This document shows, in pieces, positions 5,473-24,094 of a stretch of DNA of 64,000 bases. Position 1 is the first letter of the stretch; each line of letters opens with the position of its first letter. The position numbers and the translations under genes were made by a program. The DNA is from an uncultured Planctomycetota bacterium (GTDB lineage Bacteria > Planctomycetota > Planctomycetia > Isosphaerales > Isosphaeraceae). The notes beneath the pieces were generated by a model. The model saw only the letters and a list, made by a program, of their open reading frames with translations. It did no database searches and was not told the origin of the DNA. The stretch covers positions 128,001-192,000 of the forward strand of contig CAWJTV010000033.1 of assembly GCA_963845755.1 (NCBI GenBank), read 5' to 3'.

Positions 5473-5730
5473 GCTGCCCTCCCGTGTAACTTCACCACGC
5501 CAACCAATCGTCCGTTCGGTGGATCAAGCCATGCGACTACCCATCGCCCTCAGTTTCGGAATTCGCTCGTCCAAAGACAACCCCTTGACCCGGGATTGTC
5601 GTGTCCGCACGCGCAATCTGGCCTTGAACCAAAGGGCATTCCCTGGCATCTTGCCGCCGCGGGAGCGTCCCGATCTCCGCGGGGCGGATGGTCCGAATCG
5701 AAACCAGCCGCGACCATTGAGGATCCCCAG

Positions 5731-6651
5731 ATGCGTCCGATACTCTTCGTGCTTCTGGGGTCCGGTCTCCGGATCCACAGTTATGGAGTCATGATCTTCG
5801 CCGCCTGTGCGGCGGCGCTGATGATGGCCGTCTGGCGCGCTCGCCGGGAGAAGGTCGATCCCAACGCGGTTTACGAGCTGGCGACCTGGCTGTTCCTCGG
5901 CGGTGTGATCGGAGCACGGGCGTTTTACTTCGTCCAGCATCCTGAGGTGCTTCATGAACCGAGTGATCTCTTCCGTACCTGGCAAGGGGGAAATGTCTTC
6001 TATGGATGCATCCTCGGCGGGTTGACGGGCTCGATCCTCTACTGGCTCCGCCGGCCGTTCCCGTTCTGGCGGATGGCGGACGCGGTCGCGCCGGCGGTGG
6101 CGATCGGGGCCGCGCTGGGCCGCATCGGTTGCTTCCTCAACGGCTGTTGCCATGGTGCGATCTGCGATCTGCCCTGGGCCGTGCGGTTTCCCGCCGGCTC
6201 CCATGCCTGGGCCCGCCAGGTGAATGACGGACTCATCTCGACCGAGGCTCGCCTGTCGCTGCCCGTCCATCCCACGCAACTCTATTCCGCCCTGGCTGGC
6301 TCTGTCGTCGTGGGGTTGCTCCTGCTCTACGCACGCCGGGATCGATCTCCGGGCAAGGTCATGGCACTCTTGATGATCGCCTACTCCGTGACCCGTTGGC
6401 CGATCGAAGCGCTGCGTAGCGACGAGCCGGTTGTCTTCGCCGGAATGACCTGGTCGCAGAACATCAGCGCGGCTCTCATCGTCGGCGGCCTGGCCGTCTG
6501 GTTCAGCCGTCGGCAGCCTGCGAGCGGAGAGCTCGAAGGAACGCCAACCCTCTCGACCCGGACCGACGTGGACGCGACCTCCATCGCGCTCAATCGGGGA
6601 CGCCGGCACGCAAGGAACCCCAGCCAGGTTACCGGCGATCATTTCCGCTGA
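5731..6651 (+). CDS. lgt: Prolipoprotein diacylglyceryl transferase
   Basis: MRPILF...IHSYG, GVIGARAFY, WQGGNVFYG, GRIGCFLNGCCHG, VHPTQLYS and IEALR; multi-TM. Confidence 0.88.
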   Translation: MRPILFVLLGSGLRIHSYGVMIFAACAAALMMAVWRARREKVDPNAVYELATWLFLGGVIGARAFYFVQHPEVLHEPSDLFRTWQGGNVFYGCILGGLTGSILYWLRRPFPFWRMADAVAPAVAIGAALGRIGCFLNGCCHGAICDLPWAVRFPAGSHAWARQVNDGLISTEARLSLPVHPTQLYSALAGSVVVGLLLLYARRDRSPGKVMALLMIAYSVTRWPIEALRSDEPVVFAGMTWSQNISAALIVGGLAVWFSRRQPASGELEGTPTLSTRTDVDATSIALNRGRRHARNPSQVTGDHFR

Positions 6652-8028
6652 TCGGGAACCGGACGATCCGGCGTGGCCTCGGCGGGCGACGCAACGGGTT
6701 GGTTCGCGTCCTCGCCGGCCGGCCGGGAACCGGGAGTCGCCGGCCTGTCGAACTGGCGGCGGTGGGGGGTACGGATAAAACGGCGTCCGGTCGAACAGAT
6801 TCCGGGGACGGAGATCCATGCCGCTCCACATGATCGGGGCCGAGCCCGCCCAGGCATCGTCACCCGGCCAATACCGACGACCCGCGCCCGGCATGCCGTC
6901 CTCGTTCCTCGGCTCATGGTGCACGGCCGAGTTGCACCACAGGACGATGTCGGCCTGTTCGATCACCTCCTCATCCTTGACGATGTTCGGCAAGTTGACG
7001 AACAGGTACTCCAGCGGCCGATCGGAATGAGACCGGCTGACCCAGAGGTCGTGGTGCGTGAACGGCTCGCGGTGCCGCGGCGTGCCGTAGCGGAGCGGCA
7101 TCAGGTCGTAGGCGATCGTCTGGCCGCGCGCGTTCTTCTTGTCCGACTCGACCCGGATCATCGTGAATTCCTTGGGATCCCAGTCGACTCCACCCTCCAT
7201 CCCGCCGTTGAACGGCTCCTTCACATCCTCGGCGGCCAGGCTGGCGGGGTCCTCCACATGTTTCATGAGCATGGCGGAGTTCTTCCGGGCATCGAACAGG
7301 TCAATATCGATGCGCCAGTGGGCGCTGTGGACGTGGGCCTCATACCGCTGGCCGGGCAGGTTCTGTCCCGTCGCCCCAACCCGAAACGCGATGGTCCCGT
7401 CGTCGTGAAAGGAGTAGGACATCAGATACATGTAATTCCCGGCCTCGAGGGCACCCCAGAGGACCAGTTCCCGACCCCGACGAACGCCGTGGGCGTAATC
7501 CTTCCAGGCGATGCCCCGGTCGCGCACTTCCTTCACGACCGTCGGGTAGGTGTCCCCCTGGAACGCGGGCATGAGCGTGCCGAAGGGGCCGGCATCCTCG
7601 GCCTTGACCTCGGCCATCGGGAACGAGAAGCTGGTCAGGTCGAGAAAGCGCACGTAGCTGTGCTGGTGGTAGGGGACGAACAGCTCGGCAACTCGCGCGT
7701 CGTTGAGGATCTTGATCCAGTCCTCTCCCAGGTCGCGCTTGAACCACGCCCCCGTGATGTAGAGGCCCTTGTGCACGCCCCGGGTGTAGTGGACCTTCCA
7801 GGCCGTCCCCTTGCGTGGCTCCACGCCACCCGATTCGCTGAACAAGAACTCGGCAGTCACCTCCTGGGACGGCGGATCGACGGGCACCGGTCGCCGGAAG
7901 TATGGCTGTGCCGAGGCCGTGGCTGCGCCGATCACCGCGTACCACCAAAGCGCCAGGAACAGAGCCGGGCGGATTGGGCGAAAGACCACGGCACGCGCCG
8001 GATGCGCGGAGAGAGCAACAACAGACAC
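6639..8028 (-). CDS. Copper amine oxidase catalytic (D4) domain protein with a signal peptide; true 3' end probably reached via a frameshift near 6765
   Basis: GTG at 8028 after GAGGAG. Motifs AELFVPY, FLD (catalytic-base position), GNYMY (TPQ-precursor Tyr), FHDDGTI...GATG, HVH and DIVLW...HHEPRNED (Cu ligands), LRPRNLFDRTP. The computed ORF continues antisense through lgt, which is implausible. Confidence 0.85.
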
Positions 8029-8204
8029 GGAGTTCTCCTCCTCAACAGGGTGCACACGGCAGCCCCCAGGGTTTCACCCTGGGATGAGCGCCGCCGGCCA
8101 ATGGGGCCGGGGGGAATCGGGCCGGCCCGACTCGGCTTCAGCGGCATGAGGGGCCGCGGGAACAGAGCCCCGGGGAAACCCGGGGTCCACAGCGGAGCGA
8201 GATT

Positions 8205-8948
8205 CTACTTCCCATCACCCTCTCGCTTACGGCGCGGGCGATCGGGATCGGGCTCCGGGTCCGGAGTCCGGACCTCGCGAGCCGTCAGGTTGACCTGGGG
8301 ACGCGGATAGCTCAGGTCGTGCTTACCCAAGCGATAATTCAAGTAGACGACCCGGTGAACCCGGGGCTCGTCCTTGACGGTGTACTGGCTGAATTGCGGA
8401 TAGACCTTGAGCTGCTCACCATAGGTCTCGTACAGCTTCTTGACCTCATCGCTCTTCTCGCGTGCCGCGGCCACGGCCTCGTCGAACTCGGTATCGGAGA
8501 GCGGCGTGGGAATGTGCTGGGCCGCCTGGACATCGACGACGCGCCCCGTGTTCAGGTTGACGGTCGCATAGAACGTGATGTCGTCGAAATAGCGATAGGA
8601 GGTCACGACGGCTCGAGGAGCCGGGGCCTTGGCCGTGTTCTTGGTCTTGGCCTTGGCCTTGGAAGCCTCGCCCGGGGCCGGCGGATCGTCCTCCTTGCGG
8701 GGGAGGAGCTCGACGTTGACCACGTATTCGCGCTGATCGGCTTCGGGTTCGGAAGCCCCTTCGGTCTTCTTGCGCAGCTCTCGCATCGCCCCTCGGGCCA
8801 GCTCGACGGCCTGCTTGGTCTGCTGGGCGGTCAACCCGGGGCGCGGGCTCGGAGGCTGATCCTGAGCACCCGCCTGCCAGACCATGATGGAACCGACCAG
8901 CCCCATCGCGGCGGCCAGGACTGCCAGGGCCCGGAATCCGAGATTCAT
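8205..8948 (-). CDS. Secreted protein resembling the copper amine oxidase N-terminal D2/D3 domains
   Basis: Signal peptide (LAVLAAAMGLVGSIMVWQAGA); RAVVTSYRY...ATVNLNTGRVVDV...PTPLSDTEFDEA...VNLTAREV matches the D2/D3 pattern; AGGAGA RBS. Confidence 0.65.
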   Translation of the reverse strand: MNLGFRALAVLAAAMGLVGSIMVWQAGAQDQPPSPRPGLTAQQTKQAVELARGAMRELRKKTEGASEPEADQREYVVNVELLPRKEDDPPAPGEASKAKAKTKNTAKAPAPRAVVTSYRYFDDITFYATVNLNTGRVVDVQAAQHIPTPLSDTEFDEAVAAAREKSDEVKKLYETYGEQLKVYPQFSQYTVKDEPRVHRVVYLNYRLGKHDLSYPRPQVNLTAREVRTPDPEPDPDRPRRKREGDGK

Positions 8949-9106
8949 GGATGTCTCCTCGTAGTATGTCTTGATGCTCGTCCTCGTCGGCCTGGGGGCT
9001 GCACCGGCACGACCGGCCGGACCTCATCCACCCAGCCGACATCGAATCGAGGCTCGGACGGAGCCGCATCCCGACCAAATCGAGCTTCGCGTTCACAGGC
9101 TCGTGC

Positions 9107-12100
9107 TCACGGCTCGTGGTCGTCGAGATGGGCCTCGAGGACCTTGGCAATTCGGTGGCGGCACTCCTCGAGGTGTGCCCGGCTGGTGTCGTCGATCGTC
9201 AGGTTGGTGGTCTCGAGGACCTTGCCGATCCGGCTGGCGATCTCCTTGAGGTGAAGGCGGGCGAGGGCTCGAGCGTCCGCCGGGACCCCCGCGGCGCCAC
9301 CGCGGATGAATACCACGTAGGTGAACTGGTCGGCGGCCGATGCGCCGTTATTGCCGAGGATCATGGTGCTGAGCCGGCGCAGGTACTCGCGTTGGAGGTT
9401 GCGGCGGATGGTAGACAGGGCCGCCTTCGCCGCCTTGTCCTCCTTGGGACCGCCGAGATGATCGAGGTCCGACCAGACGCCGTCGGTCATCGCCCGGAAG
9501 ACCTCCTCCATGCGGAGCGGGTCGGTGCCGGGATTGGCCTGGAGTTGCTGGTTCTGGAGTCGGGCCAGGGTCCGGCCGGACAGGCAGCGGCTCAGGACGA
9601 TCTTCTGAATGCCGAGGATCTTCTCGAGCACCGAGATATCCATGCTGGGCCCGGAGAAGCCGCTGGAACCCCAGTGCATCCAGCGTTCGGTCCCGAGGCG
9701 GCGGAGCAGAGCGGGGGAGAACTGGAACGAACCATCGCTGAGGATCGCATCGACCAGGAACTTGAGGCAATCGCGCTGCTTGGCCCCGGGCACGGGGACG
9801 ATCGGGTCGTGAGCGTCCTTATCGGCCTTGTGGTCGCGCGAGACCGACTGGCCGCCGATATGCTCAGAGGCCAGCGTCGCACCGTCACCCCACTGTTGCA
9901 GAAGAATACTGAAGGCGCGGCGGGTCCGCGCCCAGGAGTCGCCGTCCTTGACCACCCGCTCGTCGAGATCCTTCAACAGCTCGATGGCCATGGCGATCCG
10001 CTGCTTGCCGAACTCGCAGGGGTCTGACCCGAGATCCCAGCGGTTGACATACGGGTCGTCGTTGAGCATGGCGTCTTCATCGGTCGCGTAGACCAGATCG
10101 CTCTCGGGCGCCTGCGCGGCGATCTTCTTCAACTCGGACGCCTCATCCCCCATCAAGGGCTTGTAGGCGTACTCGATCGCCCAGTAGTCGTACGGGCCGA
10201 TCGTGGTCGAGTAATAATCACCCTGCTTCTTCCCCTTGGGCGCGATGTTGATCGGACTATAGTCCATTACACTGCCGACTAGTCCTTTGACGTGCGTGAT
10301 CGACGTGTCGTTGAGCTGATCGCTCTTCAACATCGTGCTGGCCTTAAAGTTGTGACGCAAGCCCAGCGAGTGCCCCACTTCGTGCATCACGATATGCTTG
10401 ATCGCCTGGCCGACGAACTCCTCGGGCAGTTCGTCCTTGGGCTGGGGCTTCTTCGCGCTGGACTTACCCTTCCCCTGATCCTTGGGCGGTGCGATGGTCT
10501 CCAGAGCGACCTCTGCCGCATCCAACTTGAAGGCATCGTTGCCTTGCTTCTCGAGAACAGACTTGTCTTTCGACTCGTCGGAATCCACGGGCGTCAATGG
10601 CGGGCGTGTTTGGACATTCCGCTCCCCATCCGCCATGGCGATGGCGGCCAGGGCGAAGTCGCGCTGGATGCCGGTCTGGAACTGGCATTCGCCCCGCGTT
10701 CCCCGGGCCACATTCCGGGCCAGGTCCCAGGCGAGGAAGTTCTGATCGGCGGGGACGACCTCCGGATGCATCCGATTGGGATTGTGATCGAGCGCGTCGA
10801 TTCCGAGGAGAGAGCCGGCCGTCGGCTGCCCGTAGCCCATCTTGGCTGCCAGAATGGGGCTGATCACTTCACCGAGGGCCAGGGGGGCCGTGGGCTCCCG
10901 GCCACTCGTGGCCGTTTGGCTGCCGATCAGGAGGGCGTATTGCTGTTTCCACGAGCGGATGAAGTCGGCATCGAACACCACATCGCCGTCGATCATCTCG
11001 CCGGTCATGGGGTTGGCACGCAGGCAGGACATGGCGCCGCCCATCTCGCCGGTGACCCAGCGGAACGTGCAATAATTCGTGTCTTCCGGATCGAAATCGT
11101 CCCGTCCCTGCTCCTCCCAGCGGACGGCGATCGCGTCTCGGAAGCCGATCCGTTCGAACGCCTTGTTCCATTCGCGAATCCCTTCCTCGACGTACGGGCG
11201 GTACTCGATCGGCACGGTGTCCTCGACGTACCAGACGATCTGCTTCCTCGGCGGCGAGAGCTTGGCTCCGGGGTTGGCCTTTTCCAACCGCCAGCGGTTG
11301 ATCATCCGGACGAAATTGGAATCCGCATCCGCGACATCGAAATCCTTGGTCGCGCTCAAGAAGTGGCCGACGCGATCGTCCGCCATCCGAGGGTGATAAC
11401 CGAACCCCGGGGCCCGAATCAGGCTGTAATGCATGACAATCGTGATGCCCCGGTGGTCCACCACAGGATCGTTCTGGCCCGACATGAACCGCCGGCCGCC
11501 GCTGAAGGTGGTCTCGACCTCCAGTTCCAGGTTGTTCGGAAATCCCTTGGCCTTGACCCAGCTACAGCGGCTGCGGTCCACCATGCCCAGCCCGAGCTGA
11601 GCGAAATCGGTCATGAAGATGTCGGAGAGATCGATCAGGACCGCACCCCCGCGCATCATGTTCACGGAGGCGATCGGCAGCGCCATCAGGACCGAGTCGG
11701 TGTAGTTCTGCTGGACCGACTTCCCCAGCGGCGTGCCATCCGCGGCCTTGAAGTGGATGTTCCGTCGGACGACCTGGATCCGGTCGTTGACGCGCCGGAA
11801 GATCAGGACCATCTCGTCGTCCCGGCCGATCGGAAAGCCCGTCATGCCCATGCCGTGCGCGATCGTGATGGGGACGAGGAGCGGCTGGTTGAGCTGATGG
11901 GGCAGGAACTCTGCGTAGAGATGCTCACCCTTCCGGTAGAGTGTGAACAACCCTTCGATCCTCTCGGCTCCACGGGTCACTTCATTGAAGTCACGGCCCG
12001 GCCCCATGGCGGCTCGCGGCCCTCCCCGCGCACCCGCGATGACCCCTTCGAAATCAATCGGTCTCGACTCCTGAGCAGCCAGGTCCGAGGCCATGAGGCC

Positions 12101-12145
12101 CACGGTCAGGGCCGCGGCCCATCCCACACCGATGACGCGACTCAT
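9107..12145 (-). CDS. Zinc-dependent metalloprotease (EcxA/Met-zincin, DUF5117/DUF4953-type), secreted
   Basis: 1012 aa with a signal peptide, PRMADDRVGHF, HEVGHSLGLRHNF zinc motif, GSVMDY Met-turn and IGPYDYWAIEYAY. Confidence 0.92.
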   Translation of the reverse strand: MSRVIGVGWAAALTVGLMASDLAAQESRPIDFEGVIAGARGGPRAAMGPGRDFNEVTRGAERIEGLFTLYRKGEHLYAEFLPHQLNQPLLVPITIAHGMGMTGFPIGRDDEMVLIFRRVNDRIQVVRRNIHFKAADGTPLGKSVQQNYTDSVLMALPIASVNMMRGGAVLIDLSDIFMTDFAQLGLGMVDRSRCSWVKAKGFPNNLELEVETTFSGGRRFMSGQNDPVVDHRGITIVMHYSLIRAPGFGYHPRMADDRVGHFLSATKDFDVADADSNFVRMINRWRLEKANPGAKLSPPRKQIVWYVEDTVPIEYRPYVEEGIREWNKAFERIGFRDAIAVRWEEQGRDDFDPEDTNYCTFRWVTGEMGGAMSCLRANPMTGEMIDGDVVFDADFIRSWKQQYALLIGSQTATSGREPTAPLALGEVISPILAAKMGYGQPTAGSLLGIDALDHNPNRMHPEVVPADQNFLAWDLARNVARGTRGECQFQTGIQRDFALAAIAMADGERNVQTRPPLTPVDSDESKDKSVLEKQGNDAFKLDAAEVALETIAPPKDQGKGKSSAKKPQPKDELPEEFVGQAIKHIVMHEVGHSLGLRHNFKASTMLKSDQLNDTSITHVKGLVGSVMDYSPINIAPKGKKQGDYYSTTIGPYDYWAIEYAYKPLMGDEASELKKIAAQAPESDLVYATDEDAMLNDDPYVNRWDLGSDPCEFGKQRIAMAIELLKDLDERVVKDGDSWARTRRAFSILLQQWGDGATLASEHIGGQSVSRDHKADKDAHDPIVPVPGAKQRDCLKFLVDAILSDGSFQFSPALLRRLGTERWMHWGSSGFSGPSMDISVLEKILGIQKIVLSRCLSGRTLARLQNQQLQANPGTDPLRMEEVFRAMTDGVWSDLDHLGGPKEDKAAKAALSTIRRNLQREYLRRLSTMILGNNGASAADQFTYVVFIRGGAAGVPADARALARLHLKEIASRIGKVLETTNLTIDDTSRAHLEECRHRIAKVLEAHLDDHEP

Positions 12146-13479
12146 GAAGCTCTCCTCGAAGGTGGTGACGATCTGATGCTGAACGGCGACCGCCGTGGAT
12201 TCGATTTGCCTGGTACCCGGGACGCGCAGCGTGTCTCGGAAAGGATGGCCAGCGTCGCTCGATCCGCTGCCTCAGACTTCTCCCAGCTTGCCGATCCCGC
12301 ATTCCTCTTTATCTTGACGAATGAATTCCGCAGTGGCAAGCGGGGCCTGGGACATTGGTCGTCGGATCTCGGCCGTCCCCAGGCCATCGCGGTCGGTCCT
12401 CCACCCGCTCCGACTCGGCCTTCGTCGCATCCGTTCCCGATCCTCGACCCGTGTCGCCGGCGGGCTCGGCCCTTTTTTCGAGAGTCCTGGGCGAACACCA
12501 CTCCGTGATGGAGGTGGTGCGCTGTCTGGCTCCGAGAACCCGAGTGGTCATCGGCGACGTCCCAGGCGACAGCGCGCGCTCGGCTCGTTGGTCGCCGAGG
12601 GGGTGGCGCCGACCGCGGATCGTGACGCAGGTTGGCACGGATGGGCAGTGATTTGCCAGGCCGCCCTCGCCGATCTCGCTGGCCCGAAACGAGTTCGGGA
12701 TGAGTGCGTCCCGGCGCGGTCCGGGCCGGTTATTGACCCGGGCATTCGGAAGGCGGATCGTTGAGGTTTGTCCACTGGATCGGTCTCGGAAGGCCAATGA
12801 CGGCGCTCGGAAGTGTGCAGCATCGCGCTCTATTTAATAGGATGCCTCAACTTCGGAAAACCGTTAATGCACCTAGTCCCGAAATCGGGGATTTAGACTT
12901 CCGAACTCTCAATCGCGGCAGGGGTTACGAAAAATCGAAAAAAATTTTTTGATGGTGGATTGCGCACCGCCATACTGCGCACAAATGTATCGGACGTCGA
13001 GACCGGAAAGACCCCACCGACGAACTCACGTCCTCTCCCATCCCGCCGCCACGATCGGCGCGGAGATCGGTGAGGGTCGGCGAGGGTCTTGATCGGTTCC
13101 CGTCTCGCGAACGCGCTGTGATCGGCGATGGCACGATGCGCGTTGCGCCACGGCGACCCGAAGGGCGAGAGGGATCCATTTTTCGCGAGTTATGAGACGC
13201 ATGTCCACATGGAATTTGACGCGACGGACGAACAGGATCAGCGATCTTCTCTGACTCATCCGCACTGGTGTGGGAAGATTTTGATTTGCCTGCGCCCTCG
13301 CCCCACGATCGGCCCAAAAGAGGCCCGAGTCGGCTCGCCGCCGGGCGTTTCGCCAAGACCGAGACGTACGGCGAGGCTGGCCTCATCGACTACGGGTTGG
13401 AGGCGCTGGGATTGGCATCGGATCGGAATCGCTGATTGTGGAACTCGTGAAAGACCTCCACCAGCGGGCCTCCTCCGCG

Positions 13480-13795
13480 CTTGATGGCGCCCTGGCGCAT
13501 CGAGCTGGCTCATGGCCTTGCGAACGGTGATCACCACGAGCAATCGCCAGAGATCATCGCGATCGGCGAGCCGGGGGAACCGGCTCTCGGCGGCGCCGCC
13601 GCAGAAGGAGTTGAAGGCGCTCTGCGCGGCGTCCTCCGCGTCTTCGGCCGCGCCGGCCCGGGCCCGGAGCCGCTCGCGCGCCAGGCGGACCAGCCGGTCG
13701 AAACAGCGCTCCCACAGATGCTGGGACGCGGCGTCGCCGCCCGACTTCAGGTCGCCGATCCAGCACGTGACCGACCCCTCGCACATCATGGTCAT
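13480..13795 (-). pseudogene. Truncated planctomycete-type ECF sigma factor (region 2 only)
   Basis: GSVTCWIGDLKSGG-DAASQHLWERCFDRLVRLAR...DAEDAAQSAFNSF...FPRLADRDDLWRLLVVITVRKA. No region-4 HTH was found in the downstream frames. Confidence 0.7.
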
Positions 13796-14214
13796 GATTG
13801 CCCTTCGCGGCGGACGTGGTGCGGTTCCCTCGCGACTCACCGATAGTACGGCGTAGAGCTTCCCTGTGACATGCATATTCTAATCCGACTTTGGCGTAAG
13901 GCGTCAAGGACCAAGTCGTGCGGCGGGCATTCGCCCGGCCGCGAATGCTCTCGATTCCGGTTCGAACGGGAACCCACCGAGAAGGGGAGGACTTCGGATC
14001 ACATTTCTTTTTCGCAACTATATCCCGATTTGCGGCCCATTTCGGATGAAGAGGGAGAGGGCGATCGGGAATGGCGGGCGAGGATCCTTAGAACGACGGG
14101 AGATCGCCGGAGTCCGGAGGATCTTCCCTGCGTCCGGAGCGGCCACATCGCAGGTTGGCTGAGGTCGGGCAACGGGTGGATTCCTGGGCCGCGATTCCAG
14201 GCCGGCCGAGGCTG

Positions 14215-14235
14215 GTGAAAGATCCCGGCAATTCT
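14215..14235 (+). promoter_or_regulatory. 21-bp motif, copy 1, upstream of the PEP-CTERM-like gene
   Basis: gtgaaagatcccggcaattct; 20/21 identical to 15170-15190. Confidence 0.6.
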
Positions 14236-14382: not shown

Positions 14383-15112
14383 ATGCGCCGGATGACTTCG
14401 ACTCACCTCCTAGGGATCGTCTGCGCGACTGGCCTCTTGCTCCTGGGACCGGCTCGGCCCAGTTTCGGCGGGGGCCTGCTCAACTTTCAGTTCGATCCCA
14501 ATGGACCGGCCGGCCTCACGATCAATGGCGGCTTGAGTTATGACGCTTCCACCGGTGAATTCAGTGGCACGTCGGTTCCTCTCACACTCAGCTCATCGAC
14601 GATACCCGGAGGCGCCGGTTTCGTGCGTTTCTCCGGCGATCCTCAGCTCTCCTTCGACCTGTTCGTTAACCAGGATGGGACGTTCGCGGGTAACGGCGCC
14701 GGGTTCGACTTGACCGGAACCTTGTCGATCGGCGGTACCAACATCTCCGGGACACTGCTCACCGGAGACTTCACGGCGTTCGGGGCGGAGCCCGCGGGAC
14801 CGCCGACGTGGGTGGCCAACGCGGCTCTTTGATACCACCGGGGGATTGCTGACCCAATCCAATCCCTTGGCCGACGGGACCACATTTCCCACTCAGTTCC
14901 CCATCGGAGGACCCCCGGTCGGGATCGACTTCCTCGCCGAACATGTCAGCAGCGGGACTCTCGGTGATTTCACCCATAACTTCAGCGATGATTTCAAGAC
15001 CATTTTCAACCCGACCACGATCGCTGAGCCCGCGAGTTGGGCCCTCGGGATGATCGCCATCGTCATCCTCAGTGGCTTCGGTTTCATCTCGAAACGGGGC
15101 ACCCGCCGCTGA
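14383..15112 (+). CDS. PEP-CTERM-like surface protein, frameshifted near 14830
   Basis: GGAGG RBS and signal peptide; beta-rich domain; C-terminus IAEPASWALGMIAIVILSGFGFISKRGTRR (xEP, TM, basic tail). The frames join at gct ctt tga / ctc ttt gat. Confidence 0.8.
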
Positions 15113-15169
15113 TATCGCCCTCATGGTGGCAAGTCGGAGGGGCGGGAGTTGAACGACTTCACGGAGATC

Positions 15170-15190
15170 GTGAAAGATCCCGACAATTCT
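15170..15190 (+). promoter_or_regulatory. 21-bp motif, copy 2, upstream of the RHS gene
   Basis: gtgaaagatcccgacaattct. Confidence 0.6.
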
Positions 15191-15300
15191 TCGTTTAATG
15201 CGGACGAGCCGGTTCCATCGGTAGGCCCGTCTCCAAGGATCCCATTGCGCACCGAGACCAAGCCCCACATCGCTCCAGGCTTTGCAAGAAGGAGACATCC

Positions 15301-18300
15301 ATGCGTATCACATCGCTTTGCTCAATCTTCCGCAGTGGACTTGCATCTCGGGAACTGAAAGCGCTCTCAGCGGTCCCGATCGAGGCGCAAGCGATTGCAC
15401 CTGTTCGTCGATCGGCTGGAAGACTACGCTCCCCCGAATGTTTTGGCTCCGGGCTCGCTCTCGATTGGAGTGGAACTCGGGACGAAGGCGATGGCGGCCG
15501 GAGCTCTCGCTTCGGCGGTCGCCGACTCGGTGGGGGATCGCGAGTATCGCGAGGTCGCGGCGAAGCGACTAGCCCATGTCGAGGGGCCGTTTGCGGCGAT
15601 GGCCCACAGGACGAAATGGCATGGTCATAGCTCTGCGACGAGCCACGCTCGACCATCGACCGGCGCAGGTCGACGGAATGCGGTCGTCCGGTTCCTCCCA
15701 CAGGATCCGTTTACGCAGACCCTCGGAGGGTCGTTCCGAGGAGTCTCTTCGATTCACCCACAAAGCTCCTCTCAACTTGAACAGCGGATCGGGCCCGATG
15801 GCGGGCCGTGGGTCCCTGGCTTCGTCGTCGGCGACGTCGCCGATTACGAGCCAGCGGACCCCGGCTGCGACAGCCCCGAATCCCGGGCTCAATTCTTCGA
15901 CCGCTTTCGCCGGGGCCATCGGAGCCCTCTCGGCGCCGGTCAACTCGGCCCTCGCCGGCGCGGGATTGCCGTCGAACGCTTCGGGCAACGGCCAGGCTGG
16001 AGGAGCCGGCATGCCGGGCGCTGCCGGAACCGGCTTACCCTCCCCTTCGCCGGTGGCGCCGGTCGCGCTTCCGACCCCACCTGCGAGCAATCCCGAGTCA
16101 GGCGGACCGGCTGGGGGTGGGCTGCCGTCGACCGACGGTGGCGGGCTGACCCCATTAACCGGCGGTGGGGGGGCAGGCGGTGGTTTCGGTGGAAACAATG
16201 GCCTGCTGAATATCGCGCAGGATTCGGTGGGGCCCGATATCGCCTCCGGCGCAAACACCGACATCTCCTACACCCAGGTCGGCAACAATGCCAATCCGTT
16301 CCAGTACAGTGCCATCCCTCTCGAAATCACACTGGGAGACGGCTCGACGTATCCGATCAACGACCCTTCAGCCGGCGGGACGGCCACGACGAGTTTGAAC
16401 GTGCTCCTGGACAATACGGGGCACTACTCCCAGTTCATGGCGGGCGACGGCCTGAGCGTGACTGGCTCGGTCACCATCAACGGCACCACGTTCGACGGCA
16501 CATTGGTCACGGCCCAGGTCCAGGTCTTCAGCTTCTCCCAGCCGCATCCGGCCGACACGGAGTTCGCCGTTCAACTCATCGTCACTGGCGGCCTGCTGGC
16601 CCAGCAACCGGCCGGCCAACTCCAGGTCGGCGGCGAGATCAACCTCTTGATCCACCAGCCTGGATTGACGATTAGTCGGTTCCCGCAGACCTTCTCTCTC
16701 GACTATGGCCCGGCGACCTCGGATCTCAAAGGCAATGGCGGCTCAACGGGCCAGCAAGATCCTCCTTGCCCGAGCTGCTCCGGTAGCCACAGCGTCTATC
16801 TTTTTGACGGCTCGTACCAGTACACGGTTACCGACCTGTCCATCCCCGGCCGGGGAATCGACTGGACATTCGAGCGCACCTATCGCAGCGACGTCTCCGA
16901 GACCGGTCCACTGGGTCACAACTGGGATTTCAACTACGACCGGCGCGCTCGTCGAGGTGACCGCGCAGAACCTGGCGGAGATCCAGGTCTTCTCGCCCAC
17001 GGCGAAGGTGGGCGATGTCCTCGAGCAGAACGGGCTCGAACGCACGGACCTCTACGTCCTCAATCCGGACGGCTCTTACACCGCGCCGACCGGCTACTTC
17101 ACCCAACTGGTCCATCATTCCGACGGCTCTTTCACCGAGCGGGACGCGACCGGAAACGTGGTCAACTACGGCGCACCGGCCACCGATGGCACCGCGCTGA
17201 TGACCAGCATGGCCGACCCCAACGGCGACACGATGCAATTTCAATATAATAATATGAACCAGCTCGTACGCGTGCTCGATACCCTCGGTGAACCGATCAA
17301 TTACATCTATGATACCAATCCCAACTCGGTTTCGGATGGACTCCTAATCGCGGTGCAGGACTTCACCGGCCGCACGCTCTCGTTCCACTACGACGCCGCG
17401 GGAGACCTGGTGGGCGTGACCTCCCGCCGTGACCGGCACGCCTACCGGCAACGACTTCCCCCAGGGGAAGACTGAAGCCTATACCTACTCGTCCGGCTTC
17501 AGCGACGACAATCTCAATCATAACCTGCTGACGATGACGGCGCCCGACGAGGTCGCCGACGGCGGCTCGCCGCGCATCTCGCTGACTTACGGCACCAATC
17601 CGAGTCTCCCCACCTACGACCGTGTGACCAGCCAGATGGAAGGGGGGACGAACGCGAATGGAGTCCCATCCGGCGGGACGATGACCTACCAGTACCAGGT
17701 CCTGGGGACCGCAGCGCCCCGGCGATTTCGCCACTCCCGTCTTCCAGACCATCGTCACCGACGGCGACGGCAATGTGGATCTCTACCAGTTCAACCAGTT
17801 GGGTAACACCGTTGAGTACCAGGTCTTCAACAACCGCAACGTCCGGCCCAGCGATCCGGCCTCGTACACCACGGTTTACCAGTACAACAAGGATTACCTC
17901 CGGCTCAGCGGGACGGATCCCGACGGCAATTCGGTTCAATATGTCTACGATTCCAGCAACCCGGATCGGCTCCTTCAAGGTAATCTGCTCGCGGAGATCC
18001 AGCACGCCGACCCCGCGCGGGGCGGCGACCAGTCAACCATCGAAACGACCTACACCTACGAGCCGTTCTACGACGAAATCCACACGATGACCGAAGCTCG
18101 AGGCAACGATCCCAACTACGTGCCTCCCAATGGCGGATCCAACTCCGCGGCCCGCTACACCACCGTCTACACCTACGACTACCAGGAGGGGACCAACTTC
18201 GCCGGCCTGGGCCAGGTGCTCGGAATCACTGCCACCCAGGCGCAGCTACTCCTCGCCCAGGCGGGCATCCCGATGGGTCTCGGTGACGTCAACGGCGATG

Positions 18301-21300
18301 GTCAAACGAATGGTATCGCGGGCAATCTGATCCGCGTCGATCAGCCCACCGTCAACCTGCTCCCCGGCTCCAACGAGGCGGCCATCGAGGGCTCGACGCT
18401 CCAGCCGGTCGTCACCCTGTACACCTACAATCAGTTCGGACAGAAGACGTCACAGACGGATGCCGAGGGGAACGTCACCGCTTACACCTATTATCCGGCG
18501 GATGACCCCGACGGGGACGGCGACGTTGACGTCCCGGGCGGCAATTCCACAACCGGCGGCTATCTCGCGACCGTAACGACGGATACGACCGCGCTGCCGG
18601 GGCGCGATTCCGGCACCAACCCCACTCCGGCCAACATCCTGAACGAGTACTTCTACGACGAGGTCGGAAACGTGATCGAGTCGGTCAACGGTCGGGGGAT
18701 CGCCACCGACTACGTGGTCAACCAACTGAACCAGGTCGTCGAGACCATCCGGGCCGACGCCCACAATGTCTTCACGCCCGGCGTGGCCGAGCCCCTCCCG
18801 CTCACCGACTTCCAGTACTTGACACGGTACTTCTACGATGCCAACAACAACGTCGTGCTGACCGAGGTCGAGGACCGTGGCAATACCTCGAATGTGCAAG
18901 GCAACCCGCCGGCTGCCGATCTGCCGATCCTGAGCGTCAACCTCGCCAGCGTCTCCACGGGGAGCAATGGCAGCACGACCCTGAACGACTCGACCCAGAA
19001 CTGGACGACCAACGAGTGGGCAGGCCAGGCGGTCCGGATCACCTCGGGTAAGGGCGTCGGCGAATTCGCCCTGATCGTCTCCAACACGTCCACCCAGCTC
19101 ACCTTGAGCACGTCCCGGACGACCGTCCCCAACACCACCTCGCACTACGCCATCTATCCCCTGATCAATCCCGATCCCATCGGCGGCTCGACGGCGTTCC
19201 AGGACACCGTCATCAAGTACGACATCCTGGACAACCCGATCGAGACCGTCCAGGAAGTCTCCAACGGCGCCAATCCCGAGTTCCTCGACACGCTGAACCG
19301 CTACGACCCCAACGGCAACGTGGTGCTGACGATCGAGCCGGAGGGGAACGCCACAGCCATGGTCTATGACGAGCGCAACCTCGTCTACCAGACGATCCAG
19401 GGAGCGACGGCACCTCCGCCGCTGGCGCTGCTGGCCGCATCCGACCCCCGCAATTACGACGTGCGCGGCGGCCTCCCCGCGACGACGACCGATGATTACG
19501 ACCCCAACGGCAACCTCATCCAGACGGTGGCGGCCGACGATACGGACGGCTCGCTGGCGAACAATCCCAGCTCTCCAGCGGGACATCCACGGGGGCCGAT
19601 ACCGCGACCACTCTCGTCGACACGAGTCAGAGCTGGATGCCCAGCCAGTGGCAGGGCCGCACCGTGCTGATCGTCAGCGGCACGGGGGCGGGTCAGTTGC
19701 GCACCATCGCCTCCAACTCGGCCCACCAGCTCACGGTGACCGCGGCCTGGACGACGATCCCCGACGCCACGTCGGTCTACGCCTTCCAGGGAGACCGCAC
19801 TCGCTACGTCTACGACGGCTTCGATCGCCTGACCAGCGTGATCGACGCCGTGGGCAATCAGACGGTCTATCAATACGACCCGGTGGGCGACATCGTGCGC
19901 ACCCTCCACTTCGGCCCGGTAGGCGGTCCCAGCCCCTCGTCCGATGGCCCGAACGTACTGCCGGGACCGGTCTCGTTGGATGGCGTGATCCAGACCGCGA
20001 ACCTGGTGAGTTTCAACTTGCTCTCGGCCTCGGAGAGCTCGTACGACGAGCTGGGCCGCGACTACCAGAATTCCCAGGTCCTGTTCGTGAACACCATCCC
20101 GACCGTCCGCCCGGCCGACGTGGCGGAGGGGGCCAGCGACATCGGCCTGGGAAGCCTTACGCCCGGCCAGACGCAGGCCATTCCGGGCATCAGCGGCATC
20201 ACCATCCTGGGCCGAGTTTCCGACCGGACCGAATACGATCGCAATTCGCGAGTTGCTTTCATGGTCCAGGACGACCTGGCGACCTCGCGCACGTTCTACG
20301 ATGGAGCCAGCCGGGCAATCAAGACCGTGGATCCCCAGGGGAACACGCTCGAGACGGCTTATGACGGCGACAGCAACGCGATCGAGACCCGCGAGACCGA
20401 CGTCTCCCAGGTGCCCGGCGTTGCCCCCGAGGTGTTCCTCACCACCAACTTCTACGACAGCCTGAATCGCCTCCAGGAGACCGTGGACAACCTGGGTGAG
20501 ACCACGTACTACCGGTACGATTCGCGCGGCAACCTCGTGGCCATGGCCGACGCCTCCGGGCCGGCCGGCCCTGCGATCACGCGCCGCGACTTTCCCGAAC
20601 GGTCCCCGCACCGTCAACGTCACGAATCTATTCGGCAACGTGACACTCTATTTCTACGACGGCATCGATCGCCAGACGATGCAAGAGCAGATCCTGACCG
20701 CCTCGGGCAAGGGTGACGGCGTACACATCGGGGCATCGATCTTCGGCGTCAAGGACGACCCATCCGCACCCGAATCCTTCCCGCCGACCCCCGACCTCTC
20801 CCAGGGAGGCGGCGACGGAATCATCCGCACCGGCACGATCTGGGACAAGAACTCGCTGCAATCCGCACTCATCGACGACGACGGCAATGTCACCGTGTAC
20901 CTATATGACAACCTCGATCGGCAGGTCGCTGAGACCACCGGCCTGACGGTCAATTCCTCGCTCACCAGGCCCGCGATCATGGGTTCCGAGGTGATCCCGA
21001 CACCCACCGCGGCCACGATCAACAATCCGGCCGTGATCGCGGCGGCCAAGATCAACACGCAGTTGGGCGAAGTCCAGGCGAGGCTGACCGCCGTGGCCGC
21101 ATTGTTCCCACCGCTGGCGAGCACGATCGATCCGCCGACCACGTCGATCACCGACTACGACCCGCGTGGCAACGTCTTGATCCATGAAGATCAGAATGGA
21201 TCGGAGATTTTCACGCGATACGACGCGGTTAACCGCTCGATCGCGGTCCGCGTCTTCCGCACCGGCCAGCACGACTCGTTCACCGGCGACCCGATCTTCG

Positions 21301-23618
21301 CCCCGGCCCCGGTCAGCATCATCACGAATAACGGGAAGAATACGACCGTCGTCGTCGGGACCACCAAGCAGAACTTCCAGTACGACGGCCTCTCGCGGGT
21401 GACTCTGGCCACCGACAACAACGACCCGACCAACCCCAATGATGACTCGACGGTGACCGACGCCTACGACAGCCTGGGGCGGGTCATCGAGGAAAGCCAG
21501 CAAATCGGCACGCAACCGGCCCAGGCCATCGACTCGGCCTGGAGAGATGATGATCTGCGTAGCAGCCTGACCTACCCCAATGGCCGCGTTGAGGTCTACA
21601 CCTACGACACGCTCAACCGGCTCAAGACAGTCTCCGACCAGGGAGCCACGCGGCCGATCGCCGTCTATCAGTACATCGGGCCAAACCGCGTCCTGGAACG
21701 GTCCTATCCCCAGGACGGCACGATCGAGACCTTCCTCGATGATTCCGGGACGGTCAACATCGGCTACGACGGCATGGCCCGCCCGATCGAGGAGCGCGAC
21801 CTGGAGGCCAACGGCTCCTTGATCGTCGGCTTCACGTACACCTACGACCGTATGGGTAACAAGCTGACCGAAGGGAAGCTGCACGACCCGGCGAACAGCG
21901 AAACCTACACGTACGACTCCGCCTTTCGCCTGATCACCTTCCAGCGCACCCGGGCGGCATCGCTCCCTTGCAAAGCACCTGGACGCTGGACGGCGTGGGC
22001 AACTGGCTCCAGGTCAACGGACAGTCGCAGCAGTTCTCCTCGACCAACGAACTCCTCCAAGGCGCCCAGCGGCAGGCGGCCCCGCGACGATCCTCTACGA
22101 CAACAACGGCAATGAAACCGACGACGGCACGTATTTGTACACATACGACGCCGAGAACCGGCTGCGTACCGTCACGCTCAGGTCGAGCGGCGAGCTCATC
22201 GCCGTCTACTCGTACGATGCCCTGGGGCGGCACATCGAAAAGGATGTGACCAACTCCGGCAGTCAGAACGGCACGACCGATTTCTACTACGACGGCTGGC
22301 GGGACATCGAGGAGCACGACGGTGCCGGCGTCCTCACTCAACAATATGTCTTCGGCAACTACATCGACGAGCCTTTGGTGATGGACCGCAACCTGGATGG
22401 AGACAGCACGGCGACCGGACCCGGCGACCGGCGCATCTTTTACAACCAGGACGCGCTCTATTCCGTCTACGCCTTGACCGATGCCGCGGGCAAGATTGTC
22501 GAAGGCTACATGTACGACGCCTACGGCCGCCAGACGGTCTACACCCCGGCGCTAGCGGCGTCGTAACATTCGGCACCTCCGACGTCATCACGCCGGGCGG
22601 CCTGAGCGCCCTTGCCAACCCGTTCATGTTCACGGGAATGAGGCTCGACGCGGAAACCGAGCTTTATTACGACCGTGCCCGCTTCCTCGACCCGATCACG
22701 GGGCGGTTCATCGGCCGCGACCCCGAGGGGTACGTCAACGGCATGAGCCTGTACGCCGAGTATTTCTCCCCCAACGCCGTGGATCCCTACGGGCTCTGGA
22801 GTTGGCGTGGCTTCTTTAGTGGGGTTGCCAATGTCGTTGCTGAGCCATTTCGCGCCGCTGCCGACGTCGTGACTGTGGTTGGAGCTAAGGCGATGGGCAT
22901 CGATCGGGAGGATGTAAGCTTATCGAGTATGAGTGCCCAGGCCACGGTTGCCCGACTAGATGAAGGGCAAAGCGGCATCGTGGCAACAGCGAAGGGAGTC
23001 GGTGAACTCGCTGCCAACGTTGGCACAGGTGGTGGATACGGAGTTGTAAAAGGCAATATCGAGGCCTATAACGCATATCAATCGGGTCAGATTTCTTTCG
23101 AACAGTATGACTACGCTTTGAGCGAGATTGCTGGAGGCGCTGCGGCTGGTGTTGCGATCGCGAAGGCCGTTGCACTGACCGTGAAGCCTGGCAGTGCTCC
23201 GCAGCCTGGAGCCACAACTGTATATACGTCTACTGATTCTTCTGGCGTCGTCCAGTATGTTGGAATAACCGACGACTTGGTCGCCCGCGCAGCAAACCAC
23301 ATGAGCCAGAAAGGCATCGAGATAGATCCTATTCCAGGACTATCGGATATCGCGCGTGCCGATGCGCGCACGATCGAGCAAGTGCTTATCGAAAACTACG
23401 GCCTGGGGAAAAATGGCGGGACACTGCTAAATAAGATCAACAGCATAGCTGAATCCAACCCAATCTATGCCGATGCCATCGAGCGAGGCAGTGACTTCTT
23501 GGCCTGGGCCCGTTATGATGGTTTTAGCCAGGGCAATCCATCGATCTTGACAGCGATTTTAATGCTCATGAGTCAAAATATTTATTTCAATTCAACGGCT
23601 AACCCTTGTCCGAGGTGA
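15301..23618 (+). CDS. Giant RHS/YD-repeat polymorphic toxin (about 2,750 aa when reassembled across about 10 frameshifts)
   Basis: AAGGAG RBS and ATG at 15301; RKRLHLFVDRLED export-like motif; GRGIDWTFERTYRS...GPLGHNWDFNY (DUF6531-like); many YD repeats in ORFs 16705, 17429, 17775, 19637, 20496, 21968 and 22135; core FTGMRLDAETELYYDRARFLDPITGRFIGRDP...VDPYGL; variable C-terminal tip. Confidence 0.9.
23210..23525 (+). other. C-terminal toxin domain of the RHS protein: GIY-YIG/URI-fold nuclease-like (Tox-URI2-like)
   Basis: TVYTS...QYVGITDDLVARAANH...ARTIEQVLI...LLNKINSI gives the Y..YVG.T...R...H...E...N pattern of URI/GIY-YIG nucleases. Confidence 0.7.
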
Positions 23619-23625
23619 ACCGACC

Positions 23626-24094
23626 ATGGCTGATGACAAGGTTCAGTTGGGATCGCTTCTCGAAGTCCCAGTGTCTAATGGGTTCCGCTACGCTCTCTAT
23701 ACGCACGAACATAAAAAGATGGGGTCGTTGGTCCGTGCGTTCGAAACGCGCTGTGCCCGTTCGTCCAGAAGACTATACCGACATAATGTCGAGTCGGGTC
23801 CTGTTCGTATGCTTCATTCCTCTCAAGGCCATCATTCGCCAGAGCATCCTGTCTGTGGCTGCCGTCGTGCCTGTCCCAACTGCTTTTCAACAGTTCCCCA
23901 TTTTTCGGGCGGGCGTCAGCGATCCCGTTACTAAGAAGGTGCGTGATTGGTGGCTTTGGGATGGCAACAAGGAGTGGATGGTCGGGAAACTCAACGCTGA
24001 ACAGCGGGCCTATCCGATTCGTGGAATCTGGAACGACACGCTCTTTAAGGAACGCATGAACAGTAGTTGGACGGTTGAACAAGACCCCAGGTAA
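23626..24094 (+). CDS. Putative immunity protein (Imm26-like), frameshifted near 23755
   Basis: Starts 7 nt after the toxin stop. MADDKVQLGSLLEVPVSNGFRYALYTH joins ...FPIFRAG...WWLWDGNKEWMVGKL...YPIRGIWNDTLFKER. Low GC like the toxin tip. Confidence 0.75.

Follow-up and report, generated by a model that had tools for sequence, protein, structure and literature searches.

A PEP-CTERM-like protein and an RHS toxin with related barrel domains form a candidate docking unit in Planctomycetota

In a stretch of 64,000 nucleotides from an uncultured planctomycete of the family Isosphaeraceae (contig CAWJTV010000033.1, positions 128,001 to 192,000; "the window" below), a gene for a PEP-CTERM-like protein, the partner (gene 1), lies directly ahead of a gene for a giant RHS protein (gene 2), which is followed by a small gene (gene 3). 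The conserved unit consists of the first two genes and is real, rare and mobile-looking. The reading that we favour is that the partner docks the exported RHS protein at the envelope of the producing cell through paralogous barrel domains, the pair being inherited as a two-gene unit; its probability is put at slightly under one half (about 0.47). The window belongs to contig C33 of a genome, G000, of 14.3 Mb and 88% completeness. A preliminary description of this DNA had reported three co-oriented genes, and the three are found on the + strand at 14383–15112, 15301–23618 and 23626–24094, every one of them frameshifted. The locus is laid out as follows:

14215–14235, + strand: 21-bp upstream motif, copy 1; a possible operator or short dispersed repeat
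14383–15112, + strand: partner ("dock") gene, with a Sec-type signal, a predicted all-beta barrel and an AEP-CTERM tail; frameshift near 14823
15170–15190, + strand: 21-bp upstream motif, copy 2, intergenic, ahead of the RHS gene
15301–23618, + strand: RHS gene of about 2,770 codons, with about ten frameshifts
15359–15440, + strand: basic leader with a degenerate Planc_extracel-type motif (own leader model; no Pfam match)
15441–16199, + strand: linker rich in Pro, Gly, Ser and Ala
16200–16733, + strand: RHS-type paralogue of the partner's domain, the predicted docking domain
16760–22793, + strand: Cys motif, DUF6531, RHS/YD repeats and Rhs core up to PxxxxDPYG, with two inserted 70-aa repeats
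22794–23618, + strand: variable tip of 274 aa, a helical pre-toxin part followed by a putative Tox-URI1/GIY-YIG-type domain at about 23211–23510
23626–24094, + strand: putative cognate immunity gene, Imm26-like (under the cut-off), 53% GC; frameshift near 23744

The 12 frameshift sites are distributed as one in gene 1, about ten in gene 2 and one in gene 3. Aligned with an intact orthologue, gene 2 falls into nine pieces with eight frame changes, and two further breaks lie in its N-terminal part. Contigs of a short-read run, X1, which possibly represents the source sample, span two of the 12 sites at 99% identity or more. Since these contigs are in frame at both sites, the frameshifts look like assembly errors and not decay.

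The domain common to genes 1 and 2 is the element that ties them together. Local alignment of the two copies gives a score of 109, against 42.5 ± 7.9 for shuffled sequences, none of which scored as high in 2000 trials, and profile–profile comparison (hhalign) gives a probability of 98.7% with an E-value of 3e-16. By these comparisons the N-terminal domain of gene 2 is identified as a true paralogue of the gene 1 domain, as the preliminary description had proposed. Glu and Lys are conserved in the partner form, and His and Asp in the RHS-type form; these residues might make up an isopeptide or metal site. Neither Pfam nor NCBIfam provides a name for the domain, ESM Atlas gave no usable match, and Foldseek found no match to the models at E ≤0.001. 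Models of the orthologues at locus L021 are all-beta, with a predicted local distance difference test (pLDDT) score of 89 for the partner and 79 for the RHS-type domain. VIA-align relates them to generic eight-stranded barrels only, the best matches being 2q03 (Z 8.1, root mean squared deviation (rmsd) 3.1, 112 aligned) and 5k21 (Z 7.8, rmsd 3.1, 109 aligned); this establishes no new fold and reveals no function.

Three clades separate in a quick tree built from 89 rows, for which 22 partner-like rows were sampled and rows shorter than 125 aa were dropped: the RHS type (26 rows, SH-aLRT support 99), the partner (30 rows, support 99) and a paralogue found across the family (17 rows, 100). A recent local duplication was rejected, the partner being 32% identical to its own RHS domain and 31% identical to the RHS domains of other loci. 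The distance matrices of partner and RHS domain correlate (rho 0.48, p 0.005, 9 pairs), which is what linkage alone would give. The family-wide clade consists of a PEP-CTERM protein (L006, L008, L011, L012, L014, L016 and L018), mostly single-copy and often convergent with a sigma-70 gene. In three sequences (P0005, P0008 and P0029) a docking domain of the RHS type opens a surface protein that is not an RHS protein and has SdrD_B or CARDB, fn3 and P-domain modules.

The linkage of the two genes was followed across genomes. Wherever an RHS-type domain and its upstream DNA are both available, the partner lies directly upstream (9/9 loci: the window, L021, L022, L023, L024, L029, L030, L031 and L060), and these loci span two families and two different RHS cages. 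Of the 121 genomes searched in the window's own family, the same 4 give strong matches to both forms; the runner-up for the partner reaches 57 bits against at least 224 in the carriers, with a model built from these loci. A sample of 401 genomes of the class, searched at reduced sensitivity, yielded no further carrier. In a blind search of the second family each query matched one genome out of 252, which was the same genome and held the two genes side by side; the RHS protein found in this way has a different cage, without DUF6531. Carriers are thus rare, with 5 genomes among several hundred searched. The proposed test of co-occurrence between the PEP-CTERM and RHS forms therefore came out positive, with pairing at every one of the nine loci and a dedicated clade for each form. 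Among the 12 Rhs cores of G000, only that of the window has a PEP-CTERM gene directly upstream.

In one further sequence, P0011, the C-terminal half of the partner, a PEP-CTERM-like tail, a planctomycete leader and RHS occur in one reading frame; only one such sequence is available, from a contig of 5 kb, and it may be an artefact. The partner and RHS genes overlap by about 20 bases at L029. At L031 (41–7541) the pair stands beside genes for RepA, a ParA-like protein, a DNA methylase and a SLOG protein, a plasmid-like setting or one like that of an integrative and conjugative element. The partner was not found in the plasmids and viral contigs searched. The notion that any PEP-CTERM gene shares a domain with a giant gene downstream was rejected for G000, where a leader motif comes after 3 of the 81 tails, in no case with shared sequence, in a test so crude that the window locus itself gives only E 0.006.

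Gene 1 is assigned, on its tail and its relatives, to the PEP-CTERM type. The tail in the window reads AEP in place of PEP, followed by a hydrophobic helix and a basic end, and has no match in Pfam or NCBIfam; a 79%-identical orthologue exceeds the cut-off of PF07589. Of eight relatives compared with this family, one scores above the cut-off and seven below, and P-E-P is at least 90% conserved across 63 aligned rows. An exosortase (PF09721, above cut-off) is present in 4/4 carrier genomes searched, and G000 has 81 PEP-CTERM-like tails genome-wide. Kinship with the floc protein PepA was rejected: the best partner reaches 30 bits on floc_PepA (NF033554), whose cut-off is 80 bits, and unrelated PEP-CTERM proteins give similar scores.

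Modelling of the two domains as a complex, another of the proposed checks, gave a positive result for the L021 pair, whose domains are 77–79% identical to those of the window. The interface score ipSAE was 0.71, and the best of three controls scored 0.00; the mark used is reached by 116 of 157 solved pairs and 2 of 215 mismatched pairs, and is a rough one, as own alignments were used. The runs share at least 80% of their contacts, the partner has a pLDDT of at least 91 in the complex, and no close solved relative exists from which the model could have been copied (best Z 8.1 and 7.8). When the predicted contacts are mapped on the profile alignment they fall on equivalent strands of the two paralogues, as in a pseudo-homodimer. 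The model supports binding of the two domains without proving it, and does not speak for its specificity.

Several observations weigh against docking as the function of the pair. The controls were unrelated proteins only, with no homodimer, non-cognate pair or generic paralogue among them, and close cousins pass the same test too (10/12 colicin pairs), so the score of 0.71 may reflect dimerisation throughout the family. The predicted interface is no more conserved than the remainder of the domains (permutation p about 0.95 on both sides). The superfamily is promiscuous: among its 54 matches are generic PEP-CTERM proteins as well as surface proteins with SdrD_B. Some 80 proteins of the partner type, like P0005, P0008 and P0029, come without genomic context. 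Four of the nine loci (L022, L023, L024 and L030) are close kin. The PEP-CTERM protein ZepA is released, so such a tail is no proof of anchoring (PMC10957091, in the part consulted). Finally, four of the five other complete loci have no immunity gene, and a tethered cage would still have to deliver a nuclease into its target. The preliminary description had warned of a promiscuous module whose two forms do not co-occur. Promiscuity of the superfamily was indeed found; the proposal is not refuted by it, because the two forms co-occur (9/9), fall into dedicated clades and are predicted to bind.

Some of the same evidence would suit a pair of paralogous ligand-binding or matrix domains that make no direct contact, the RHS protein being steered to the same glycan or envelope ligand as the partner. 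Many adhesin-like and generic PEP-CTERM proteins have the domain, no special conservation marks the interface, and PEP-CTERM proteins function in floc matrices (PMC9850573, in the part consulted). We regard this as unlikely, given that the complex model passes against unrelated controls and that the position directly upstream is reserved for a dedicated partner clade, even though a generic paralogue is already present elsewhere in about 35–47 of the 121 genomes of the family.

Gene 2 has the architecture of an RHS toxin, with DUF6531, RHS repeats and Rhs_assc_core above their cut-offs (PF05593, PF20148, TIGR01643 and TIGR03696). Its leader follows the Planc_extracel-type pattern, a basic stretch plus an LExLExR-type motif, which is degenerate in the window. 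PF07595 (Planc_extracel) does not match the leaders of these RHS proteins. With a model made from 27 unrelated leaders of G000, 9 of 10 leaders of the RHS family score above all 100 shuffles (L029 failed), and the window leader outscores 100 of 100. Most RHS orthologues have no clear hydrophobic signal in the leader. At least five of the 11 other RHS genes in G000 have the same leader type and no partner, so RHS export generally needs no partner. The G000 Rhs cores on C41, C34, C33:579979 and C49 include several in leader-bearing giants, and at least two cores (C41) are followed by long extra domains and not by a short tip.

These leaders bear on a further explanation, that the partner serves as a folding chaperone or as an escort in export, the RHS protein crossing the envelope on the exosortase-sorted partner before it is released. 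Such an escort would produce the same linkage and the same complex model as docking, the orthologous leaders mostly have no clear hydrophobic signal, a PEP-CTERM protein can be released (PMC10957091, same part), and MafA is required for the secretion of MafB (Arenas et al. 2020, PMC7738311, in the part consulted). The leader-bearing RHS genes without a partner speak against it, as does the nature of the partner, a small soluble barrel with nothing channel-like, and we consider an escort rather improbable.

The preliminary description found no PAAR, VgrG, EagR, CdiB, WXG or Tc gene in the window, and this is confirmed: the 33 other filtered open reading frames of the window include no member of a type VI secretion system (T6SS), CdiB, WXG or Tc family. 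PAAR, VgrG and EagR are absent from the locus, and G000 has no PAAR match. The genome does carry TssC and Hcp (contig C20, about 679700–686700), and the carrier genomes, G000 included, have TssC in 2/4 and Hcp in 3/5, with PAAR in G032 only. TssC and Hcp were not found in G087 (92% complete) or G069 (69%). Since three of five carriers have Hcp, the T6SS independence proposed earlier rests on the leader and the locus; a general absence of the system from the carriers is not upheld. PAAR-Rhs effectors of the T6SS, which come with VgrG and EagR, have DUF6531, an RHS cage, a variable tip and an immunity gene in common with the window locus; they differ in that the locus has a leader and a barrel domain instead of PAAR, VgrG and EagR. 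An ordinary orphan effector of this kind, lying by chance beside one of the roughly 80 PEP-CTERM-like tails of a genome with TssC and Hcp, is a very improbable account of the locus: PAAR and VgrG are missing there and PAAR from the genome, the planctomycete leader is present, and the linkage holds at 9/9 loci, including those of two genomes without a T6SS marker found. Two other sources do not settle the export route in the parts consulted (PMC4452313 and PMC10952558).

The cage and its tip form the C-terminal part of gene 2. A PxxxxDPYG motif precedes the tip, with DPYG at 22782. RHS cages cut themselves at DPxG and enclose the C-terminal tip, and such self-cleavage would be expected here. 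Within the cage there are two beta-rich inserts of 70 aa each (18942–19163 and 19577–19792), mutually 45% identical, which have no Pfam name and do not occur elsewhere in G000; both are present in L021, the second is missing from L022, and they are possibly outward-facing binding modules. The Pro/Gly/Ser/Ala-rich linker is found only in the window and L021 among the paired loci. Behind the docking domain, RHS carriers have a CxC or CxxC motif (about 16760–16780 in the window; P0002–P0017; L060) that SdrD_B carriers lack; in L021 a Cys motif lies ahead of the docking domain instead.

The preliminary description saw a nuclease-like tip followed by an immunity-like gene. Homologues of the tip are found in 41 longer proteins, up to 69% identical to it, which include RHS, filamentous haemagglutinin and HINT toxins. 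When the window tip is aligned with these 41 homologues, the Tox-URI1 residues (Y, YxG, R, [RK]xxE and N) are at least 85% conserved; the motif is given as Y-YxG-R-RxxE-N in the consulted part of PMC3482391. The Pfam GIY-YIG model gives the tip 14.5 bits against a cut-off of 22.6, and PF01541 is found in one of the 41 homologues. No relative of the tip was found by sequence in the PDB, and no homologue in 250 other genomes of the phylum. A nuclease of the Tox-URI1/GIY-YIG type is predicted. Gene 3 has 14 full-length homologues, and Imm26 (PF15428) matches 5 of 16 members weakly, below the cut-off (best E 1.6e-4). A homologue of gene 3 stands directly behind a homologue of the tip in 3/3 unrelated plasmid loci examined, from 4 matches, and on this arrangement gene 3 is assigned as the cognate, Imm26-like immunity gene of the window tip. 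Tip and gene 3 have 53% GC against 63% in the cage, which fits their acquisition as a low-GC cassette swapped into the locus.

The other loci differ in this region. The six complete tips are mutually unrelated (6/6; best cross E 0.03), and three of the six carry 5–12 cysteines. The tips of L022, L023, L024 and L060 have 3–12 cysteines and no Pfam match, that of L024 being hydrophobic and helical, and the L021 tip has a nuclease-like motif by eye only. No immunity-like gene lies downstream in L021, L022, L023 or L024; L060 has one small downstream gene of no assigned family. Because the six tips differ and four of five other complete loci are without an immunity gene, the module of three genes first proposed reduces to two, the partner and the RHS gene, and gene 3 belongs with the window tip. 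The window copy is likely antibacterial, since its nuclease-type tip comes with its own immunity gene, and the term antagonism is safe for this copy only, the others mostly lacking such genes. The missing immunity genes suggest that most payloads are not harmful to the producer, and the unrelated, often Cys-rich tips of the other copies probably have targets that are not kin.

These tips also bear on the proposal of a receptor or kin tag, in which the partner sits on target cells and the RHS protein attacks carriers of the same locus with another tip, as in kin-restricted allelic warfare. Both genes are limited to the same few genomes, the tips differ in 6/6 and one locus lies beside RepA and ParA genes; a producer with its own receptor would need immunity, yet four of five other complete loci have no downstream immunity gene. 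The kin tag fits this poorly, and we hold such a receptor to be decidedly improbable.

Returning to docking as the preferred reading, it could proceed in five steps. The signal peptide would direct the export of the partner, and exosortase would process it; the motifs and the enzyme are found, and the processing is presumed. The RHS protein would leave by means of its planctomycete leader, which is found, by a route other than the T6SS. The two barrels, as modelled, would pack face to face through equivalent surfaces. The cage would cut itself at its DPxG motif, as RHS proteins generally do, and hold a swappable tip, whose variation is observed. In the window, the tip would be a GIY-YIG-type nuclease that was gained with its immunity gene as a low-GC cassette. 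That the partner is anchored at the surface, that it tethers the RHS protein and that the family as a whole is used against bacteria is inferred; the export routes, retention, cleavage and killing are presumed in the same way.

The closest analogue is MafA-MafB-MafI of Neisseria, in which the gene of a polymorphic toxin, whose N-terminal domain is constant and specific to the lineage, always has a surface-protein gene upstream of it (PMC3482391, in the part consulted). There, too, the partner has been proposed as an anchor or is needed for secretion, a likeness that is one of analogy only. MafA is an outer-membrane protein with a lipobox and is unrelated to MafB-N, whereas here the PEP-CTERM partner is paralogous to the N-terminal domain of the toxin, the toxin is an RHS cage and immunity genes are mostly absent. 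DUF1020 (MafB-N) has no Pfam or NCBIfam match here, there is no lipobox Cys at the end of the signal in the window, and for these two reasons the system is not a Maf member. It is best read, by analogy, as working like MafA-MafB, with dock and cargo made from paralogous barrels whose binding and tethering are predicted.

The principle of anchoring is already published: in section 37 of Zhang 2012 (PMC3482391), constant N-terminal domains are proposed to serve as anchors of toxins, either by way of a surface protein encoded upstream or by homotypic contacts. RHS, URI tip and Imm26 are likewise known parts. Microscilla-N and the Amoebophilus domains APD1 and APD2 are such constant domains, proposed there to anchor or cluster toxins by homotypic contacts; they differ in that section 37 describes neither a sorting tail for them nor a paralogous partner with a gene of its own. 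RHS toxins exported by Sec or a type II secretion system, with Tox-URI1 and Imm26, have the RHS repeats, core, DPxG, URI motif and Imm26-like neighbour of the window locus; they differ in that no link to PEP-CTERM is described in the part consulted (same source), where "PEP-CTERM" has 0 occurrences in 300,000 of 357,715 characters, the supplements lying outside. The exosortase substrates PepA and ZepA resemble the partner in having a signal peptide, a single beta domain, a PEP-CTERM tail and an exosortase in the genome, and differ in that no tie to a toxin is described in the consulted parts of PMC9850573 and PMC10957091. A paralogous pair of PEP-CTERM and RHS proteins was not found in print in open-access PMC and bioRxiv.

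The pair offers a small, soluble and testable handle on two questions, the role of PEP-CTERM proteins and the way in which RHS toxins of Gram-negative cells act when no T6SS is involved. It comprises two domains of about 180 aa, tightly linked genetically and with an interface that is predicted with confidence. If the domains bind, they would represent a new anchoring chemistry for polymorphic toxins, a paralogous heterodimer combined with exosortase sorting, and a means to identify cargo of the planctomycete leader; if docking is true, it would be the first concrete job for such a PEP-CTERM surface protein. The rarity of the unit (5 genomes) limits its ecological reach. A more general scheme, which is possible if doubtful, is that two matching barrels, a dock sorted by exosortase and a tag, arose from one old duplication, and that any exported giant which gains the tag (two RHS cage lineages, SdrD_B and CARDB proteins) is clipped to the surface. 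PEP-CTERM proteins would then be modular anchors for other proteins, much as cohesins are for dockerins, and RHS cages would be surface-displayed capsules whose cargo ranges from antibacterial nucleases to Cys-rich, immunity-free payloads against non-kin.

The upstream motif that the preliminary description noted before genes 1 and 2 is real, with 20/21 identical positions between 14215 and 15170, and it is rare, with only 3 sites at four or fewer mismatches across the 14.3-Mb genome. As a conserved feature of the system it fails, being missing at 4/4 orthologous loci tested; with no sigma-70 consensus site found at it either, a role as promoter of the system was rejected. It could be an operator for PEP-CTERM loci. 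The third copy in G000 (C19, about 56310, − strand) lies upstream of fragments similar to extracytoplasmic function (ECF) sigma genes and of two PEP-CTERM genes.

Elsewhere in the window, the − strand upstream of the locus (5524–12145) bears a copper amine oxidase-like gene, a small partner gene and a DUF5117/met-zincin gene, all seemingly unrelated to the locus. A divergent planctomycete ECF sigma gene (PF07638) at 13256–13876 (− strand), recognisable only in its N-terminal half, has 76% DNA identity to an intact ECF gene which, together with a Ser/Thr kinase gene, precedes the L021 pair.

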